Part shown: one piece after another, positions 6,850 to 29,554 of the stretch
How the letters are laid out: every line of letters begins with the position of its first letter
How positions within the stretch are numbered: the first letter of the stretch is position 1
Virus record (IMG/VR): IMGVR_UViG_3300025875_000002
Coordinates: 64,001-128,000 of that record
Reading direction: 5' to 3' (one strand)
From: a virus
Lineage: Duplodnaviria > Heunggongvirae > Uroviricota > Caudoviricetes
Length of the DNA: 64,000 nucleotides
Position numbers and translations under genes: made by a program
The notes under the pieces: generated by a model
Database searches by the model: none
What the model was told of the DNA's origin: nothing
Seen by the model: only the letters and a program-made list of their open reading frames with translations

Positions 6850-7438
6850 GATCTTGATGACGGAAAGTAGTTTCAAGATTTTTGGATTTCCGGTACTGTT
6901 GATCTTCAAACGGACCTATACTTCTCACGTAAGCAAGACACGGACTAGCAGGAGGATAGACAATGGCTCACAGCCGGAACGATGGGTGCGCAGACGGCAC
7001 GGATGTAGTTTGGTATGAGCACGATGCAGCTCTCACAACCGGGGAAGCAATGGCCATCGCGGGGGAAGCGTGCGAGTCGCACCCAATCGACGATGCGGCT
7101 GCCCTGCTGTCGATCAGTGCCACCGACCGTGGGTGATCGCATTTGGTTCGCAGTCTGTAACGGTCTGGTTCCCGCGCTGGTCCTGTTGCTTCTGTTGATC
7201 ATCCTGGTCTGTTCGATCTTCTGATACATGGTCCCCCGGTACCGGTTAACGTTTAGTCGTCCGGTACCGGGGTTGAACCATGATCATTTGGCTTATCTGC
7301 CGGAGTCACTCTCCGTGTTGATCTTGAACAGAAAGTAGTTCAAGAAATTTCTGATTTTGGGTACTGTTGATCTTCGTTCGAACCGATACTTCTAATGTGA
7401 GCGAGAGACGCTCACCACTAGCAGTAGGAGAAATCATG
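6850..7438 (+). repeat. two ~115-bp imperfect direct repeats (6850-6965, 7320-7438) carrying operator-like IR, promoter and RBS
   Basis: Shared GATCTTGA..GAAAGTAGTT..CAAGA..GGTACTGTTGATCTTC..ATACTTCT..ACTAGCAG..AGGA. Confidence 0.8.
6963..7136 (+). CDS. hypothetical protein (57 aa)
   Basis: GGAGG RBS within repeat copy 1; hand-translated open frame. Confidence 0.55.
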   Translation: MAHSRNDGCADGTDVVWYEHDAALTTGEAMAIAGEACESHPIDDAAALLSISATDRG

Positions 7439-7702
7439 TACACCACCACCGCCGACCGTCTCGCTCTCGCCCGCCGGGACGCAGAGCACCTCGACACCTA
7501 CGGCACGCCCGTCCCGCGTGAGGCACGCCGTTTCGCTCTCCGCGCGGTTGCCGCTCTGGTGGGCATCCTCGCCGCTGTCTTCGTCTTCGCGCCGATGATC
7601 GGTCACGCGGAAGACGTGCGGCACTGTCAGACCGTGCACGCAGCCGGTCCGTCCGACGCTCCGGAAGCTCTCCGCTGTGAGTCGGTTCTGTTCGGAAAGT
7701 GA
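7436..7702 (+). CDS. single-TM hypothetical protein, GC-rich
   Basis: AGGAG RBS within repeat copy 2; TM segment FALRAVAALVGILAAVFVFAPM. Confidence 0.65.
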   Translation: MYTTTADRLALARRDAEHLDTYGTPVPREARRFALRAVAALVGILAAVFVFAPMIGHAEDVRHCQTVHAAGPSDAPEALRCESVLFGK

Positions 7703-7791
7703 AAAAAGGGGGCCGGTTGGACTTGACCCAACCGGCCCCCCGGACCGATACTGAGAACACAGCAAGCAACCCACTAGCAGGAGGAATGATC

Positions 7792-8052
7792 ATGTACAGC
7801 TTTGACGCAGACGACAGCCGGGACTACGCGGAGGAGGCCTACTGGTCCAACTACTGCGGGGAGTGTGACGGCACGTGCACGGGACAGCATGATGAGCCCG
7901 CACCATGTGACCGGGTCGGCTGCCTGAACGATTCTCAGATCGGAAACCGCTTCTGTTCGGATGAGTGCGCGGACGTGGTCAACCGGGACAGTGACAACTA
8001 CACGCTGTGCGTGGCCGATGCGTGCGACTGCGAGAGTGATGATCTTGACTGA
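7792..8052 (+). CDS. Cys-rich, very acidic hypothetical protein
   Basis: AGGAGG RBS, TTGACC-18-GATACT promoter; about 10 Cys and many Asp/Glu. Confidence 0.65.
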   Translation: MYSFDADDSRDYAEEAYWSNYCGECDGTCTGQHDEPAPCDRVGCLNDSQIGNRFCSDECADVVNRDSDNYTLCVADACDCESDDLD

Positions 8053-16470: not shown

Positions 16471-16608
16471 CACTACTATTGTAGCATAAACTTTTGTCCT
16501 TAGCAACCGGTGAGGCTTCCAGTTGAACTTAATAAGACTATACCACGATCCATTTTAAGGTGCAAACGCCGGTTTTGAATCTGAAACTCAGTCTGATATA
16601 CTTCATGT

Positions 16609-18927
16609 ATGCCATATTACTTCGTTACCGAGGAAGACCAAGCAGCAGTGCTGCCGGTTTCCCACCGGCCCATCAGCTCAGATTATATTCTAACAGTAGA
16701 GTTTACTAAGCGCTTTGACCGGTTTAATCCGCAAGTGCCTTTCTTGACTTTGCCAGTAACAGTTTCAGGCAATTACTTGAACATAACACTAACCCAGGCC
16801 CAGGTTAACAGCATCAGAACATCTTATTTTAAGATTAAGGCAGCGAAGCCCGGTACAGAGTTTTATGTAGATAATGGTAAAATATCTTATTCGCCAAAGA
16901 CAGCAACAGCACCAGTAGTTGATGTGGTAACCCAAGAAGAGTTTGATGCAGTTGAAATTCCAACAATAGCAGAGATCGAATCTATTGCCAAGGCAAAGGT
17001 TGCAGCTGACATTGAAGAGGTTTTGCCTTCTAGATTAAGTACAGTGGAACTAAGGGCGGCCTTTGTGCCGCTCCTCGGCCCCGCCAACGGCACGGCCGAC
17101 GCCGCCTGGATCAACGCCAAGATCGCGGGCGGCGGCTACTTCCGGGGCAACCCCGGCGCGACCTACCTGCTGGAGTCGCGCCTCATCGTGCCCTCCAACA
17201 CGCACATCGACTTCACCGGCTGCACCCTGCAGTTCAAGCAGACTCTCACCAGCGGAAACCTCTGCACCAACTACTCGCAGGCCAACCCGAAGTCCGTGGG
17301 CGGAGTAACGGCCAATGTCGGGGACACCACGTTCTACAGCGACACCCCGCTGAGGGGCCAGGTGTCGGTCGGCGACAACATCGTCATCTTCCAGGCGGGT
17401 GTCGACGGCATCCCATTGACCGCGATCGTCACCGCAGTGAACAGCTCCACGTCGGTCACCATCGACCGGCCCATCGCCAAAGCCGTTACCAACACCACCG
17501 CGCGGGTTTACGGCACCGACCACGACATCACCATCCAGGGCGGCGTCTGGAACCGGGGCGCGGTCGGCGGTTACGGAGCCGTCGAAGGCCACGGCCTCAA
17601 CTTCCGGTTCGTCCAGCGGCTGCACGTCGACATCGACGAGTACCACGCGACCGCCGGCACCTACGCCCTCTGCGTCGCCGCCGTCTGGGACTACAAGATC
17701 GGCTGCGGGTGGATGGACAACAAGTCTCTCGACGGCCTGCACGTCATGGGACCCGCCTACGACGGGGAGTGCACTCGCCTCGCCGGGAACACCAACGATG
17801 ACTCCCTCGCGTTGCTCTGCGCCGACGCCATCGGCCCCCTGACCGACGTGGCCGGAGACATCATCGGCTTCACCTGGAACATCGTCCGCACCCAGGCCGA
17901 ACAGTCCATCGTGAAGATCATGTCCGGTCCGGGGCTGACCATCGGCGGCATCCGGGGTGGCATCACGCAGGGCACCTACAAGCTGCGTCACGCCGTCTGG
18001 ATCGGCGAAGACCTCGCCAACCCCGGCGTGATGAAGGGCAACTGGGGCACCATCGACGTCGGCATCATCGATGCCGCACCCGTGGCCGGCTTCAACCAGT
18101 GGGCGCCCCTTGGCCTGCATAGCCCCAACGCCGGGCTGATCAAGGCCACCATCCGCTCCAAGTCCCCGCTCCCCCGCGCCCTGGTCGACACTGCCGGCTC
18201 CACCCCGGTCGTCATCCGCCGCCTCGATCTGGAACTCGACGCGCTCGGCCCGGTCCCGATCCTGCTGGCCACCAACACCAACATGACCATCGACTCGATG
18301 GACGTCCGGGGCCGCTACGACCAAGTGTCCGGCAGCCTGTCTCCGATGCAGATCAGCGCAGGAGCCTGGAACGACATCGACTCCTCCAAGCTGACCTCCT
18401 CGCTGACAGCCCGCACCCTCATCGCGGCCAGCGGCACCGGCAGCTACACCGAGCGCAGCCCCAAGCTGATCATCCCCTTCGTCGGGATGCTCAACCCCAA
18501 CGCCGGGGCGTGGAGCGCCGCCAACCGGGCCGTGTTCGACAGGTTCACGCTCATCACGTCAACCACCCTGCGGTACGTCAACTGGATCGTCAGCACCCAG
18601 TCCGGCAACGTCCAGGTCGGCATCGTCAAGCTGGCCGGCGTCGGCCACGGTGACTACACCGTGGTCATGGACTCCGGTGTGATCCCCTGCCCCGCCGCAG
18701 GGAACATCTGCACCGATCTGGGGGCCAAGACCCTGCCCCCTGGTGACTACGCGGTGTTCCTGTGGGCCGACAACGCCACATTCCAGACCCGTGCCGCTGG
18801 GGCATCCGGGCTGGCCGCGCTGCGGGTGTCAGGCAGCCTCGACGGGCTTGGCACGGGCGTCCAGGCCACCGGGAACTTCTCCTACGGAACCCTGTACTTC
18901 GCCGCAACCGTCGAGGCTGACGTCTGA
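16609..18927 (+). CDS. virion-associated protein: phage N-terminal anchor fused to GC-rich pectin-lyase-like beta-helix/tailspike domain
   Basis: Abrupt AT-to-GC shift at ~17060; beta-helix-type segments (LDGLHVMG, NTNDDSLAL); leaderless promoter 16575-16602. Confidence 0.65.
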   Translation: MPYYFVTEEDQAAVLPVSHRPISSDYILTVEFTKRFDRFNPQVPFLTLPVTVSGNYLNITLTQAQVNSIRTSYFKIKAAKPGTEFYVDNGKISYSPKTATAPVVDVVTQEEFDAVEIPTIAEIESIAKAKVAADIEEVLPSRLSTVELRAAFVPLLGPANGTADAAWINAKIAGGGYFRGNPGATYLLESRLIVPSNTHIDFTGCTLQFKQTLTSGNLCTNYSQANPKSVGGVTANVGDTTFYSDTPLRGQVSVGDNIVIFQAGVDGIPLTAIVTAVNSSTSVTIDRPIAKAVTNTTARVYGTDHDITIQGGVWNRGAVGGYGAVEGHGLNFRFVQRLHVDIDEYHATAGTYALCVAAVWDYKIGCGWMDNKSLDGLHVMGPAYDGECTRLAGNTNDDSLALLCADAIGPLTDVAGDIIGFTWNIVRTQAEQSIVKIMSGPGLTIGGIRGGITQGTYKLRHAVWIGEDLANPGVMKGNWGTIDVGIIDAAPVAGFNQWAPLGLHSPNAGLIKATIRSKSPLPRALVDTAGSTPVVIRRLDLELDALGPVPILLATNTNMTIDSMDVRGRYDQVSGSLSPMQISAGAWNDIDSSKLTSSLTARTLIAASGTGSYTERSPKLIIPFVGMLNPNAGAWSAANRAVFDRFTLITSTTLRYVNWIVSTQSGNVQVGIVKLAGVGHGDYTVVMDSGVIPCPAAGNICTDLGAKTLPPGDYAVFLWADNATFQTRAAGASGLAALRVSGSLDGLGTGVQATGNFSYGTLYFAATVEADV
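17046..17065 (+). repeat. left junction site L, GGAACTAAGGGCGGCCTTTG (copy 1)
   Basis: 20/20 identical to 26796-26815; sits at the composition boundary. Confidence 0.9.
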
Positions 18928-19193
18928 CCCATCGGTGATTGGCTTGAAGCAGACCGCTCGGCGAGCGACCCATCCAACCGACCCTTCCAAGTCAAGGCAG
19001 GCCGTTCGACCAAGAACCAACTCAGGCACGCCGCGGTGATGGTGGCGGGAAAGGACAACAGGGCGACAGCTGTCCGGTCGTGAATTCCTACGCTTAGCCA
19101 GTCGCGTGAGCCGCTCTTTCCGCGACTCCGTGGCTGGCCCCATGCCGTGGAGTTTACGCAGTCGATCCGGAGCAACTCGCCCGGCGGGTGCGT

Positions 19194-19210
19194 CTAAGGG
19201 GGCGCTTCGT
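19194..19210 (+). repeat. right junction site R, CTAAGGGGGCGCTTCGT (copy 1)
   Basis: 17/17 identical to 28071-28087; GC-rich tract ends here. Confidence 0.9.
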
Positions 19211-19217
19211 ACTAGTC

Positions 19218-19250
19218 AACAAAGCACACCGTTCTAAGGTGTGCTTTGTT
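19218..19250. terminator. intrinsic terminator
   Basis: AACAAAGCACACC-loop-GGTGTGCTTTGTT followed by ATTTT. Confidence 0.8.
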
Positions 19251-24436: not shown

Positions 24437-26094
24437 CTAGGAGAGCAGTTGACGACGATGAGTTGTCAGCTTTTGACAATATTTCAGCCAAGGTAATTGG
24501 CGACGGTGAGAGGGTGCTCGTCACCGACATTGTCGATCCTTTTTCACTTTCTGGTGACAACCTGCGTAAGGTGCAGGGCCTTGACCCAAATGCCAAGCGC
24601 CGCCGGTCTCGCAAGCTAGAAAAGTCTTATACAGGCCACGAAGACTCAGGCACAAAGCGTGATGAGATAGAAGGACAAGTAGACGCTTACAATTTGTTTG
24701 GTGTGGTTCTTCCTAAGTACAACATGGACTACCTTGCCAAGATTTATGAAATGAGTGCTCCTCACTACGCGGCAGTTAAGGCAAAGGTTGCAAACATCGC
24801 CGGTCTAGGGTTTGATTTTACTCTTACTCATGCTATGCAACGTAAGATGGCAGCAGCAGATGATGCCAAGAAGGAGCGTATGCGCAAGCAGCTAGACAAC
24901 ATGAAGGAAGATGTTTATAGCTGGCTAGATGACACAAACGCAGAAGACACTTTTTCTGAAACTCTAATCAAGGTTTGGACCGACTACGAGACCATGGGTA
25001 ATGGATACATCGAAATTGGTCGCACAAACTCTGGTCAAGTCGGCTATATCGGTCACATTCCAGCTTCTACCATGCGCGTGCGCAAGGAACGTGATGGCTT
25101 CGTACAAATGGTTTCTAATCGTGTTAAGTTCTTCCGTAACTTTGGTGAAGACACCGCAGACCAGCTAGGCAATGATTTTCGACCAAATGAGATCATTCAT
25201 ATCAAAAAGTACAGCCCAACAAACCAGTTTTATGGAGTGCCAGACATTGTCGCTGCTCAGCAGGCAGTAGTTGGTAACGAATTCGCATCTAGATTTAATC
25301 TAGATTACTTTGAAAACAAGGCCGTTCCTCGCTATGTTATTGTAGTTAAGGGAGGATCGTTCAGCGCCGCCGGTGAGCAGAATTTGCTAGAGTTCTTTGA
25401 GACAGGACTAAAGGGGAAGAATCACCGTACCATTTACATTCCTTTACCAGCGGATGAACAGGATCGAAAGGCTAGTTTCGAAATGAAGCCGGTTGAGGCC
25501 GGTACTCAGGATTCTAGTTTCGTTAACTACCGCCGGGGCAATCTGAGTGATATTCTTATGGCACACCGTGTTCCAGTATCTAAGGTTTCAATGGCAGAGA
25601 ACGTTAGCCTTGCTGCATCTAGAGATGCAGATAAGAACTTCAAGGAACAGGTTTGTCGTCCAGAACAGAAGATGTTTGAAAAGAAGATCAATAAGATCAT
25701 AGGCGAAGTTACTGATGTGTTCCGTCTAAAGCTAAATGAGCTTGTCCTAACCGATGAAGATACTCAAAGCAAGATTGACGAGCGTGATCTTCGTTGGGGC
25801 AAGACTACCGTTAATGAGATTCGTGCAGCTCGTGGAGAATCACCTCTTCCTTGGGGAGATGAGCGTTCACAGCTACCTTCACAGGCGGTTGACCCAGAAA
25901 CTATGGCGCTACAGCAAAAGCAGGCCAAGACTCAGGCAGATGCAGCTAAGGCCGCCGCCAAGGCACCAGCTAATGCAGAAGCTAATGCACAGCAGGCAGG
26001 TACACGTACGCGAGACGCCGAGCGTTCAGCAGGAGCAACCGATTCAGCCGGGGAGGGAAGAAATGAGCAAGGATCAGGTAGGACAGCTGCGTAA
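24433..26094 (+). CDS. portal protein
   Basis: DYETMGNGYIEIGR..HIPASTMR..EIIHIKKYSP..YGVP..FENKAVP; position before protease and capsid. Confidence 0.9.
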   Translation: MTRRAVDDDELSAFDNISAKVIGDGERVLVTDIVDPFSLSGDNLRKVQGLDPNAKRRRSRKLEKSYTGHEDSGTKRDEIEGQVDAYNLFGVVLPKYNMDYLAKIYEMSAPHYAAVKAKVANIAGLGFDFTLTHAMQRKMAAADDAKKERMRKQLDNMKEDVYSWLDDTNAEDTFSETLIKVWTDYETMGNGYIEIGRTNSGQVGYIGHIPASTMRVRKERDGFVQMVSNRVKFFRNFGEDTADQLGNDFRPNEIIHIKKYSPTNQFYGVPDIVAAQQAVVGNEFASRFNLDYFENKAVPRYVIVVKGGSFSAAGEQNLLEFFETGLKGKNHRTIYIPLPADEQDRKASFEMKPVEAGTQDSSFVNYRRGNLSDILMAHRVPVSKVSMAENVSLAASRDADKNFKEQVCRPEQKMFEKKINKIIGEVTDVFRLKLNELVLTDEDTQSKIDERDLRWGKTTVNEIRAARGESPLPWGDERSQLPSQAVDPETMALQQKQAKTQADAAKAAAKAPANAEANAQQAGTRTRDAERSAGATDSAGEGRNEQGSGRTAA

Positions 26095-26421
26095 AGGTGA
26101 ATACATCATTAGTAGAAAGACTCTAGGGGAAAGACTCTTGGAGTCAGCAACTCAGGCGGTTGATTCAGACGAGCCAAACAAGTCATGCATTAGGGGACCA
26201 CATGAGACCACAGAAGAAGAGTAACCTGCCCGGTTGCATAAGGAGGAAAAATGCTAAAACTACTCTTATTAATCATACTAGTAGTACTGTTAACCGCACT
26301 GATCGCTAGTGCTTACACTGGACTACAATCCTGGAGAAGAAGTAATAGGTACGTTGATCCAGAGAAGAGAAATACAAACCTAAAGTTATGACTTTGGAGA
26401 AAAATGAGGTAAAATATAACC

Positions 26422-28065
26422 ATGTCAACAGCATCATTTACAACCCGCGCCGGTAGCCCGGCCGGTACAGTAGCATACGTCGCCCCGGTAGCAGGAGCCA
26501 CTTACACGGTAGAGTTTTCAAGAAACAGTTCATTCAGAACTATTCTTATTACAAAGCCTGTAATTCTAAATGATAATGCCGTAACCATTTCAATGACAGC
26601 AGCAGAGGTCGACCAGCTAGGAGACGGTTATTACAGAGTTAGAGCTACCAAGGACGATAGAGTTTGGACTCTTGTAGATGGATCAATTGATTATATTCCT
26701 AAGGCTAAGACTACTGGATTAACTGTTGCTGATGTTGTTTCAGACCCTGTTTTTATTGACGCAATTCCAACTGCTGCTGAATTAGCTGCATCACCGGAAC
26801 TAAGGGCGGCCTTTGCGCCACGCGGCCTGCGCAACCTGCCAGGCATGTACCCGCTGGGAGCACGCGCCGGAATCGGCCAGGGCTTCATCGGGACCATCAG
26901 CGGCCAGGACAATCGCTACCGCGTCACTGTCCCGTTCCAGACCAACGAGGTCCGCCTCGTGTACACCAACTGGATCGGCCCTGGCACCGCCGAACGCGAC
27001 GGCACCGCCGACCTCGTCGTGCGCGCCGGGATCGAGATGCCCGACGGCAGCTTCCGGGCGGTCTACTTCGCCGGGCAGAGGGACGTGCGCATCGGCATCG
27101 GCGGGTCTGCTGTCAGCGACCCCGTGGCCGTCGAGCACGCCGGGCCAACCGACCCCAGCCCGTTCCTCTACGTGCGCACCAAGGTCACGGCCTACACCGC
27201 CGGCACGTCGACCCTCGCGCCCGGATCGATCCCGCAGGGTCCACTCATGACCGCCACAGGCGAAGGCACCGACTCCGACCCGGCTGGCGATGTCACCACC
27301 TCCGGCACCGTCGGATCGACGTACAACTTCATGTACGTCCCCGCCGTCGTTGCGGGCAACTGCACTGACGCCGCCCCGATCATCGCCCTGATCGGGGACA
27401 GCATCACCCTGGGCAAGAACGACGGACCCGACAACTACGGCTGGGGCGCCCGTGCCGCCGAAGCTGCTCGACTGCCCTACCTGAAGCTTGCCGAGGGCGG
27501 GGTTCAGGCGCAGTACGTCTCGGTGCCCAACGGCCACGCGCGCACGTTCGCACTGGGCACCGGAGCTACCGACGCGCTGGTCATGCTCGGGACCAATGAC
27601 CTGGGAACGGCCACAGTTTCCGGGGGAGTCATCACCGCCGTGCAGATCTACCTGTACCGGATCTGGCTCGCGTGGTCGCGTCGCGGCGCCCGGGTTCGCG
27701 CCTGCACCCTGGTGCCCCGCGCAACGTCAACCGACTCCTGGGCGACCCTGGGCAACCAGACGCCCATGGCCAGCAATCCGGCTCGCATCATCATCAACGA
27801 CTGGATTCGCGCCGGTGCCCCGCTCGACGCCGCGACCAAGGCACCGGCTGCGGTCGGTGCGCCCGGCTCCATTGTCGCGGGGCAGACCGGACACCCGCTG
27901 GTCGGCTACATCGACACCGCAGATGCTGTCGAATCGGCCCGCAACTCGGGGCTGTGGATCGTCAACGGGTCGGCCAACTACGCGACCTCCGACGGAACCC
28001 ACCCCGGAGGTACGGCCTACGGCCTCATCGCGGCCAAGGTGCCCACTGCGGCGTTCACCGCCTGA
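26422..28065 (+). CDS. virion-associated protein: phage anchor domain fused to GC-rich SGNH/GDSL hydrolase
   Basis: GDSIT, LGTND, DGTHP catalytic blocks; N-terminus paralogous to 16609; AT-to-GC shift at ~26810. Confidence 0.75.
   Translation: MSTASFTTRAGSPAGTVAYVAPVAGATYTVEFSRNSSFRTILITKPVILNDNAVTISMTAAEVDQLGDGYYRVRATKDDRVWTLVDGSIDYIPKAKTTGLTVADVVSDPVFIDAIPTAAELAASPELRAAFAPRGLRNLPGMYPLGARAGIGQGFIGTISGQDNRYRVTVPFQTNEVRLVYTNWIGPGTAERDGTADLVVRAGIEMPDGSFRAVYFAGQRDVRIGIGGSAVSDPVAVEHAGPTDPSPFLYVRTKVTAYTAGTSTLAPGSIPQGPLMTATGEGTDSDPAGDVTTSGTVGSTYNFMYVPAVVAGNCTDAAPIIALIGDSITLGKNDGPDNYGWGARAAEAARLPYLKLAEGGVQAQYVSVPNGHARTFALGTGATDALVMLGTNDLGTATVSGGVITAVQIYLYRIWLAWSRRGARVRACTLVPRATSTDSWATLGNQTPMASNPARIIINDWIRAGAPLDAATKAPAAVGAPGSIVAGQTGHPLVGYIDTADAVESARNSGLWIVNGSANYATSDGTHPGGTAYGLIAAKVPTAAFTA
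26796..26815 (+). repeat. left junction site L (copy 2)
   Basis: Identical to 17046-17065. Confidence 0.9.
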
Positions 28066-28070
28066 CGGCA

Positions 28071-28087
28071 CTAAGGGGGCGCTTCGT
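28071..28087 (+). repeat. right junction site R (copy 2)
   Basis: Identical to 19194-19210; 5 nt after the payload stop codon. Confidence 0.9.
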
Positions 28088-28204
28088 GCCAGCGCGTGAC
28101 ACGGCGACACGGGGAGCTGTTGCCCAGCCTTATCTAACTGATGAAATGGTGTTTTGATACCATTAAATTTTGCATTAAGAAAAGAACAATGGTATATTAC
28201 AAAT

Positions 28205-29554
28205 ATGAAGATTGAGAAGGCAAATTGGCAGAGCGAGGGCGATAGCCTACGCATTACAATGCCATTGCAGAAGGTTGATGTTGAAAAGCGCATCGTTTCT
28301 GGTTTTGCTACTCTCGACAACGAAGATTTGCATGGTGACGTTGTAACTAAGGAAGCTTCTAATAAGGCTTTTGAGCGTTTTCGTGGTAACATTCGCTTGA
28401 TGCACCAGCCAATCCCGGCGGGTAAGTTAGTTAACTTTCGTGAGGAAGAATATTACGATTCAAAGACCGAAAAGCTGTACCGTGGAATTTACGTTGATGC
28501 GTACGTTTCTAAGGGTGCTCCTCAGGTTTGGGAAATGGTTCTAGATGGAACTCTAACGGGCTTCTCAATTGGCGGAAACGTTAAGGATGCTAAGACCGAG
28601 TTCTCTAAGGATGCAAACAAGCAGGTTCGTTACATTAAGGATTACGAGATGGTTGAGCTTTCACTCGTTGACAACCCAGCTAATCAGCTATCAAACATTT
28701 TCAGTATTCAAAAGTCAGCCGATGGAGACACTACGGTTGAAGGCATGATCACAAAGGTCGATGCTGAAAACGTATTCTACTGCAAGAAGGAGCACGACCC
28801 GGTAGCCCTTGTTGGCGCTGAGGAAAGCAAGAATTGCGTAGAGTGCGGCGCCGAGATGAAGAACATCGGATGGTTTGAAAGCGATGGCGGTGACAGAGCA
28901 GAAAAGGTTAACTCCATCGTGGAAAAGTTTGAATCTGATTCAGTTGAGGGAGGTGAAAACATGGCAAAAGCAAAGGTAATTGAAGACAAGACTGTGCAGG
29001 AGCTTGCAGAGGATGAGTCAACTACGGTTGAAACTGCCGAGGAAGTAACCCCTAAGGGTGATGAGACAGTAATCGCACCGGAAGGTGAAGAAGCTGCTTC
29101 TGCTACTAATGTAGAAGACGTAAACGTTACCGTAACAGGTACGGGTGAGTCTAAGACAGAAGAGGCTAAGGAGCTTAACGAGGCCACAGCAATCGCAGAC
29201 GGTACAGAGGCAGAAAACCCTCTAACCAAGATGTTTGAGGAACTAAGCGCGAGCATTCAGAAGTCTCTTGACGCTAATAGTGAAAAGACTGCATCAATCG
29301 TTGCAGAGGCAACCGCCGGTTTCGAAAAGAAGCTAGGCGAACTTGCTGAAAAGCACGATGAGCTTAGCAATAAGTTTGGCACACTGACTGAGAAGTTCCA
29401 GGAAGTTGAGAAGTCTCTAGAAGTTGTAGAGCAGTCGGGTGCAATTAAGAAGTCTGCGGACCTTGGCGGGGACGCAGGAGATTCTTCTCTACAGAAGAGT
29501 AATGAAAAGAGAGTTTGGAAGGGTTCTATCTTCTCATCAGCTGTAATAGGCTAA
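28205..29554 (+). CDS. capsid maturation protease fused to acidic/coiled-coil scaffold
   Basis: RIVSGFAT..D.HGDVV..MHQ..TGFSIGG..ELSLVDNPAN; leaderless promoter TTGCAT-17-TATATT. Confidence 0.9.
   Translation: MKIEKANWQSEGDSLRITMPLQKVDVEKRIVSGFATLDNEDLHGDVVTKEASNKAFERFRGNIRLMHQPIPAGKLVNFREEEYYDSKTEKLYRGIYVDAYVSKGAPQVWEMVLDGTLTGFSIGGNVKDAKTEFSKDANKQVRYIKDYEMVELSLVDNPANQLSNIFSIQKSADGDTTVEGMITKVDAENVFYCKKEHDPVALVGAEESKNCVECGAEMKNIGWFESDGGDRAEKVNSIVEKFESDSVEGGENMAKAKVIEDKTVQELAEDESTTVETAEEVTPKGDETVIAPEGEEAASATNVEDVNVTVTGTGESKTEEAKELNEATAIADGTEAENPLTKMFEELSASIQKSLDANSEKTASIVAEATAGFEKKLGELAEKHDELSNKFGTLTEKFQEVEKSLEVVEQSGAIKKSADLGGDAGDSSLQKSNEKRVWKGSIFSSAVIG

Follow-up and report, generated by a model that had tools for sequence, protein, structure and literature searches.

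The stretch of DNA analysed here (referred to as the window) comprises 64,000 nucleotides (nt) and corresponds to bases 64001-128000 of a 133,294-bp virus record (IMG/VR IMGVR_UViG_3300025875_000002; Caudoviricetes), which is rated as complete by CheckV and has a genome-wide guanine-plus-cytosine (GC) content of 47.5%. The gene under study, open reading frame (ORF) 26422-28065, is located between the genes for the portal (PF04860) and the prohead protease (PF04586), i.e. outside the tail module, as an earlier note on this DNA had stated. It is chimeric: a low-GC part coding for an immunoglobulin-like (Ig-like) N-terminal domain (N-domain) changes, within a short motif termed L, into a GC-rich part coding for a predicted SGNH esterase (the payload), and a second short motif, R, follows the stop codon. 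A second gene with N-domain, L, GC-rich payload and R in the same order is represented by ORF 16609-18927. The two loci are termed cassette 1 (ORF 16609-18927, with motif copies L1 and R1) and cassette 2 (ORF 26422-28065, with L2 and R2); the designations L007-L017, L111-L113, L120 and L121 are used for contigs of other phages and are distinct from the copies L1 and L2 of motif L.

The gene order around ORF 26422-28065 is that of phage Daubenski (RNR, LysM-like protein, 512-aa protein, 111-aa protein, portal, small gene, protease, major capsid; aa, amino acids). The protease region matches Streptomyces BE-cluster-type phages (Samistivirus and relatives) at 64-70% nucleotide identity, and the protease gene was the sole match when positions 26000-29000 were searched against GenBank phages using blastn. 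The phage that carries the gene is a low-GC, Streptomyces BE-cluster-like phage.

The whole genome contains only two islands of more than 65% GC, at 17001-19250 and 26751-28150; a moderately GC-rich stretch (61%) is also present at 7351-8050 of the window. The GC content at third codon positions (GC3), which is 0.44-0.50 in neighbouring and other genes of the phage, rises from 0.29 (codons 1-125) to 0.85 (payload) in cassette 2, and from 0.38 before L to 0.91 after it in cassette 1. This step is abrupt and unameliorated, in agreement with the proposal of the earlier note that the payload is foreign. By maximum likelihood, the left change-point of cassette 2 (GC 0.43 to 0.71) was placed at 26804 (support 26784-26815), inside L, and the right change-point (GC 0.70 to 0.40) at 28130 (support 28118-28132), 43 nt beyond the end of R; the change-points of cassette 1, at 17054 and 19205-19206, are inside L and inside R, respectively. 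The expectation that the compositional boundaries coincide with L and R was thus confirmed for the left edge but not for the right edge of cassette 2, where GC-rich DNA continues to 28130 and R is not the end of the cassette as had been claimed.

The L 19-mer GAACTAAGGGCGGCCTTTG occurs exactly twice in the window (17047-17065 and 26797-26815; 0.02 copies expected from shuffling); the exact identity extends over 20 bp (17046-17065 and 26796-26815), and 23 of 24 positions are identical between 17046-17069 and 26796-26819. The R 17-mer CTAAGGGGGCGCTTCGT also occurs exactly twice (19194-19210 and 28071-28087; shuffle expectation 0.11), with 20/22 identity between the cassettes over 28071-28092. 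No further copy of either word is found elsewhere in the 133,294-bp genome; the motifs are exact copies, two of each, as first noted. R starts 5 nt after the stop codon in cassette 2 (TGA, 28063-28065; R from 28071) and 266 nt after it in cassette 1, for which about 265 nt had been given. The 266-nt trailer of cassette 1 (18928-19193, 64% GC) has no database match; it was considered as a displaced payload remnant but is not clearly one, and none of its frames has a coding-type GC3.

L is coding sequence. It is read in the same frame in both chimeric genes (codons GAA CTA AGG GCG GCC TTT), giving the peptide ELRAAFAP in cassette 2 and ELRAAFVP in cassette 1; in the model of the N-module, residues 125-131 (ELRAAF) are the last helix. 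L, being in frame inside ORF 26422-28065, represents the codons of a conserved junction helix in a modular protein family, and not the free DNA site that had been assumed; in several members of the family, the same peptide is encoded by different codons. Nor is identity of the bare 19-mer evidence by itself, because the exact 19-mer in metagenomes is found mostly in unrelated genes that merely encode ELRAAF. R was also considered as a junction peptide (LRGRF), which was found in no family protein, and as a widespread bacterial element, for which only 10 exact matches were obtained in 596 Gb, nine of them chance-like and the one in Streptomyces prunicolor inside an unrelated ORF.

L and R resemble each other (19/24 between L1 and the R of cassette 2), nine of 12 dyad pairs are symmetric in both L1 and R2, and the motifs are arranged as direct, not inverted, repeats. 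This resemblance, together with the fact that both L and R are identical between two loci whose N-domains share only 33-35% identity, would suit a dedicated, sequence-specific cassette exchange, in which L and R are related but non-identical sites (24 bp, with 9-nt imperfect inverted arms around a 6-nt GC spacer, which is not the same in L as in R) and a recombinase or nuclease of host, donor or phage swaps the content, an arrangement akin to engineered recombinase-mediated cassette exchange or to integron cassettes. We regard such a system as unlikely. The outer dyad arms, read by eye, are not kept in L2 or in the joints of the phages L008, L009 and L011; R elements vary widely among phages; in high-GC DNA, 17/24 matches to R are as frequent as expected by chance; and the occurrence of the exact L 19-mer in unrelated ELRAAF genes also speaks against it, as does the overshoot of GC-rich DNA past R in cassette 2.

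No intrinsic terminator (GC-rich hairpin plus T tract) was called at R1 or R2, with no significant fold at either, and RNA folding of R1, R2 and the L007 copy of R revealed no common or significant structure; the only strong signal came from the native terminator beside R1. No known RNA families were found around L and R, and no tRNA genes were found in the window. The features of the two loci are summarized in Table 1.

Table 1. Features of the two chimeric loci and their flanks (positions in the window)
Feature	Position	Strand	Basis
Chimeric coding sequence P0001, 547 aa: Ig-like N-domain, junction helix, beta-sandwich, predicted SGNH esterase	26422..28065	+	ORF, translation, domain searches
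Native low-GC N-module: predicted Ig-like beta-sandwich (aa 1-92) and helical linker	26422..26796	+	GC3 0.29, AlphaFold2 (AF2) model
L, junction motif (ELRAAFAP)	26796..26819	+	left change-point inside; residues 125-131 helical in model
GC-rich segment, putatively imported; GC 0.70, GC3 0.85	26804..28130	+	change-points, GC3
Predicted payload beta-sandwich (carbohydrate-binding-module-like), ~aa 157-300	26890..27320	+	model aligns with 7TOG and 9KR0
Predicted SGNH catalytic domain: GDS(327), G390, N392, D524, H527	27380..28062	+	invariant columns, phrog_8480, 9kr0
R, L-like element of 24-26 nt, untranslated with the gene	28067..28092	+	exact 17-mer identical to 19194-19210
GC-rich run-on past R	28093..28130	+	right change-point 28130
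Promoter-like site upstream of ATG	26388..26415	+	ATGACT-16-TAAAAT, 9/12 consensus matches; consensus match alone
Segment absent from L013: whole gene between portal and protease	26392..28165	+	sequence comparison
Cassette 1 coding sequence P0002, 772 aa: paralogous N-domain, ELRAAFVP, GC-rich payload	16609..18927	+	GC3 0.38 to 0.91
L of cassette 1	17046..17069	+	repeat match, change-point
R of cassette 1	19190..19215	+	contains GC change-point 19205-19206
Native low-GC intrinsic terminator directly 3' of R1	19218..19250	+	13-bp stem followed by ATTTTGTGAC

The N-domains of the two chimeric genes are paralogous (33% identity, E = 3e-10; 35% in global alignment). Their family has no Pfam or PHROG match, and no relatives were found by tblastn in GenBank phages or by word search; it surfaced only in a full hidden Markov model (HMM) profile search of 1.84 billion proteins, which yielded 93 cluster representatives. 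In nearly all of these the domain occupies residues 1 to ~100, and the C-termini behind it vary from 97 to ~950 aa and comprise collagen-like, beta-helix and SGNH modules as well as short tails. An AF2 model based on 51 family members predicts an Ig-like beta-sandwich (predicted local distance difference test, pLDDT, 91) followed by short helices; its best PDB match is a mycobacteriophage baseplate chain, with generic Ig domains scoring equally well. A docking part is the best explanation for this Ig-like domain, and both chimeric proteins are probably displayed on the virion. Promoter-like sites at 16575-16602 and 26388-26415 each end 6 nt before the ATG of their chimeric gene, which, as consensus matches, suggests that each gene may be expressed independently from a leaderless or near-leaderless transcript.

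The payload of cassette 2 contains all motifs of an SGNH hydrolase that had been proposed for it: block I (GDSIT, residues 325-329, with G325, D326 and the nucleophile serine S327), the oxyanion residues of blocks II and III (G390, N392 and D393, in GTND) and block V (D524, G525 and H527, in DGTHP, providing the Asp and His of the triad) are invariant in 10 homologues. The Pfam gathering thresholds were narrowly missed (21.1 bits vs 23.6 for PF00657, and 17.6 vs 32.9 for PF13472); the payload matches phrog_8480 (E = 9e-40), and a profile of its family matches solved SGNH enzymes in the PDB, including 9kr0 (E = 1e-19). The AF2 model of the payload (pLDDT mostly 65-90) shows an alpha/beta/alpha SGNH fold, for which Foldseek found 9KR0, 7TOG and 7TOJ (E ~1e-15) and many single-domain GDSL enzymes, and residues 157-545 share 27-32% identity, over ~370 residues, with actinophage minor-tail or 'lysophospholipase L1-like' esterases. 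An assignment as polysaccharide-type SGNH acetyl-esterase is supported by these profiles and models, and the enzyme most likely deacetylates a glycopolymer of the host cell surface during adsorption; this is a reasonable function because model and profile match polysaccharide and polymer acetyl-esterases, and it is in line with the deacetylation of surface polysaccharide that was suggested in the earlier note. The payload of cassette 1 has no Pfam or PHROG family match and is read as beta-helix-like from sequence motifs only.

The same two-domain architecture, an N-terminal beta-sandwich followed by an SGNH domain, is found in the acetylxylan-type enzymes PbeAcXE (7TOG) and CspAcXE (7TOJ) and in a polyvinyl-alcohol esterase (9KR0), with target-normalised TM scores of 0.62-0.69; however, identity to these is 16-17%, and they are cellular secreted enzymes with substrates unrelated to phage adsorption. 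The esterase minor tail proteins of actinophages (phrog_8480; Arthrobacter phage TripleJ gp31 and Gordonia phage Rabbitrun gp24) represent the same two-domain esterase with all SGNH blocks; identity to these is distant, the anchor of the present protein is a different one, and its gene is located between portal and protease. SGNH esterases are known as receptor-binding enzymes, e.g. in Klebsiella temperate phages (PMC13123978).

The joint recurs in other low-GC phages. Three further family genes from unrelated assemblies (L111, L112 and L113) combine an N-part low in GC (GC3 0.41-0.62) with a payload at 0.69-0.70 GC (GC3 0.90-0.96); their joints match L1 at 21/24, 19/24 and 17/24 positions, respectively, and an R-like element follows within ~5-12 nt after the stop codon, beyond which the DNA is low in GC again. 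All five genes with an L-type nucleotide joint (the two in the window and these three, from at least four phages) switch from GC 0.42-0.51 to 0.67-0.70 between CTAA and GGGCGGCC, and none of the seven family genes that lack such a joint has a change-point (delta lnL < 5), an association with Fisher p = 0.0013. On the right, four of the five genes have their change-point within the R-like element, immediately ahead of TTNGT; in these four, its distance from the stop codon is 14-22 nt, or 278 nt in cassette 1. GC3 is 0.85-0.96 in all five payloads, i.e. there is no amelioration. The earlier proposal that the joint has been used repeatedly is borne out by these genes. Breakpoints at the same motif positions, shared by five genes at the left end and by four at the right end, count in favour of a site-specific enzyme; the contig L120, in which the GC-rich part begins ~30 codons upstream of the L-type joint and belongs to a multi-gene GC-rich block, counts against one. 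In that contig, an SRA-derived, low-GC relative, the Ig-like N-domain gene codes for 151 aa and is GC-rich from about residue 95; the block (within L120:2580-4547) runs on through two or more further genes, so that the import covers several genes and is 1.9 kb or longer. Only a weak GC step was observed in L121.

The record is a metagenome-derived IMG/VR contig with joins at repeated 17-24-mers, as might result from a misjoin of a low-GC and a high-GC phage at common short words during assembly. Such an artefact is extremely improbable: the reading frame is preserved across both joins and the order of domains makes sense, each island returns to the phage backbone at a syntenic place, the same join is found in independent assemblies of other samples, and the word sizes with which assemblers build final contigs exceed a repeat length of 17-24 nt.

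In L013, the closest relative found (portal 82% and protease 87% identical), portal and protease are separated by a gap of only ~220 nt, and AAAGTTATGA is joined straight to AAATTTTGC; in the window, these strings are at 26382-26391 and from 28166. Because 26392-28165 separates both strings, the window and L013 differ by the whole gene, including the low-GC leader, the N-domain and a 36-nt low-GC tail, which has been either inserted or deleted as a unit between portal and protease. The portal-protease interval, whose comparison across related phages the earlier note had proposed, does vary, as the gene is absent from L013, but the missing unit is the whole gene with its low-GC head and not the GC-rich part alone. 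Of the related loci retrieved on the basis of portal similarity, only L014, L015 and L017 were seen to contain N-domain genes, at or near the cassette-1 locus upstream of RNR and with C-termini of native GC content, one of which is an SGNH esterase; a GC-rich payload was found in none. Directly after the portal gene, the window contains a small hydrophobic ORF (26252-26350, MLKLLLLIILVVLL...), and a small membrane-type ORF is present at the same place in L013 and in phage Daubenski (gp46, which in some relatives carries the annotation of a membrane protein). Daubenski gp46, which occupies the same interval, was considered as a counterpart of the chimeric gene and rejected, being an unrelated membrane protein.

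Absence of the gene from the closest relative also bears on a scenario in which a single ancestral fusion of N-domain, L, payload and R was followed by vertical descent and duplication, with payloads that diverged or were replaced illegitimately, and with L and R identical by descent or gene conversion. The paralogy of the N-domains, and the confinement of L and R to the two loci in this genome, speak in its favour. We give it little credence, since there is no nucleotide similarity between the N-domain genes beside L, at a protein identity as low as 33-35%, and yet L is conserved at 23/24 positions; furthermore, the two payloads look unrelated (one a confirmed SGNH domain, the other without family match), and all five payloads have retained their unameliorated GC3.

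The same flanks are found in high-GC phages. A search of IMG/VR for a degenerate L pattern returned five loci, four of which (in three distinct phages, GC 0.66-0.71) are positioned at the boundary between an N-module and a beta-helix or SGNH payload; in these phages (L008, L009 and L011) the joint reads GAACT(A/G)AGGGCGGCCTT(T/C)G and connects unrelated N-modules to the payloads. In L009 (69% GC), two paralogous N-modules each end at L, with a 295-nt similarity that stops within ~5 nt of L, and one of these genes (N-module, ELRAAS, SGNH) is located directly after the portal gene, the same position as in the window. The L009 N-module has no detectable homology to the Ig-like N-domain of the window (hhalign probability 7%), so the distribution of the joint is wider than that of either docking domain. 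In L009, the L codons are atypical (CTA, 1.7% of Leu codons; AGG, 3.4% of Arg codons), with a probability of ~1.6e-6 for this choice under L009 codon usage, and they are atypical for the low-GC phage as well. Such a codon choice points either to common ancestry of the joint or to a constraint at the nucleotide level, and it also counts in favour of a sequence-specific exchange system. A 586-aa head-morphogenesis-like protein is encoded downstream of the portal gene in L009 (5988-7748, minus strand), seemingly with an intein-like insertion.

R has counterparts in the high-GC phages, too. A 26-nt hairpin element with a GCCCC-AGA-GGGGC stem and CGCTTTGT is present three times in L009 (3675-3700, 7766-7791 and 9416-9441); one copy starts 6 nt after the stop codon of the N-module-L-SGNH gene and agrees with the R-like element of L112 in 19/23 positions. 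The post-stop string TGACCC is common to L008, L009, L111, L112 and cassette 1, and R of cassette 2 is 89% identical over 38 nt to a site in L007 (72% GC) located ~235 nt after an SGNH fibre-type gene. By these resemblances, R looks like a stop-proximal remnant of a donor-type terminator flank.

Because the same joint and R-like elements after the stop codon occur in high-GC actinophages, L and R probably represent the short conserved flanks of a shared payload pool. We infer for the direction and pathway of transfer that payloads are probably swapped with this high-GC phage pool by general short-homology recombination across the two conserved flanks. A native Ig-like dock, the ELRAAF helix and a horizontally acquired GC-rich enzyme module would be joined in one protein, with payloads replaced by homologous or short-homology recombination across L and R, and R would be left over from the 3' flank, a terminator-type element close to the stop codon, of the donor gene. 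The recombination enzyme could be a RecA-like protein of the phage or the RecA of the host, and a dedicated site-specific enzyme would be unnecessary. A RecA-like gene (PF00154, E = 2e-32, 352-aa frame) is present at 132114-132851 of the genome, near its right end and outside the window; no RecT or ERF was found in the genome.

The dedicated capture mechanism for which the two cassettes had been taken as support was not substantiated: in the complete 133-kb genome there is no match to a tyrosine recombinase (PF00589, Phage_integrase) or a serine recombinase (PF00239, Resolvase), with positive controls that worked, and a diversity-generating retroelement is represented neither by an RVT_1 match in the genome nor by a second payload copy (the two GC islands being unrelated in sequence). 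The finding is best read as module swapping across a conserved seam, not as a proven dedicated capture machine.

Several points weigh against payload exchange by general recombination. For recombination of the RecA type, a homology of 17-24 nt is very short, and the same L breakpoint in five genes, together with the L-R match and its dyad symmetry, would likewise be compatible with a sequence-specific enzyme. The GGGCGGCC run itself attracts the maximum-likelihood change-point, and breakpoint precision is only ~10-15 nt; furthermore, only 12 family genes were examined as DNA, and these were chosen partly by peptide motif. The search for a payload donor gave a best protein-database homologue of only 36% identity, tblastn of the payloads against the high-GC contigs that share L or R gave no match, and blastn of cassette 1 DNA against GenBank phages gave none either. 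It is distinctly improbable that an L/R-specific enzyme enables low-GC Streptomyces phages to mount ready-made modules on a fixed dock, taking them from prophages or from co-infecting phages of high GC content; if this were true, recombinase-mediated cassette exchange would have a natural equivalent that serves host-range modules.

The exchange of host-recognition modules among phages is well known, but its crossover points are rarely visible. Here, a gap of ~22-24 GC points allows both ends of the exchanged piece to be located with a precision of 10-15 nt, and a joint of 16-24 nt recurs in several low-GC phages and, with a different dock, in high-GC phages, which provides a concrete and testable case for the old idea that short conserved linkers guide module shuffling in phages. 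The uniformly unameliorated payloads suggest a fast turnover, which in turn points to frequent genetic contact of two compositionally distinct phage populations on the same hosts. The natural 'plug-in' design, with Ig-like dock, helix and exchangeable enzyme, could be tried in the engineering of Streptomyces phages on laboratory strains.

A conserved N-terminal anchor with swapped enzymatic C-termini is standard in phage receptor-binding proteins, as in the O-antigen tailspikes of E. coli phages (PMC10408124) and the tailspikes of Klebsiella Przondovirus (PMC12692247). The genes in the window share with these tailspikes a conserved N-terminal dock, unrelated catalytic or binding modules, and probable horizontal exchange at a fixed domain boundary. 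In contrast to the tailspikes, the anchor in the window is an Ig-like family without Pfam or PHROG match, the genes are located outside the tail module, the imports differ by ~22-24 GC points from the recipient, and the joint is conserved at the nucleotide level across phages of 47% and 69% GC.

Short conserved crossover points within divergent fibre genes are also represented by the adhesin motifs of T-even gp37/gp38 and by the collagen-like repeats in receptor-binding genes of Streptococcus thermophilus phages; here, however, the left flank is a coding joint and the right flank a non-coding, apparently terminator-derived one, and donor and recipient are compositionally far apart. In integrons (attI/attC) and in the Mu G segment (Gin-gix), cassettes are bounded by short related sites, and sites may lie at the boundary between constant and variable parts of a fibre; unlike these systems, the genome that contains the window lacks a recombinase gene, L and R are direct repeats, and the left site is conserved as a peptide. 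Distinctive for the present case are the very large GC gap, a joint that is conserved at the nucleotide level across different docks, a recurring 3' flank, and unameliorated payloads.

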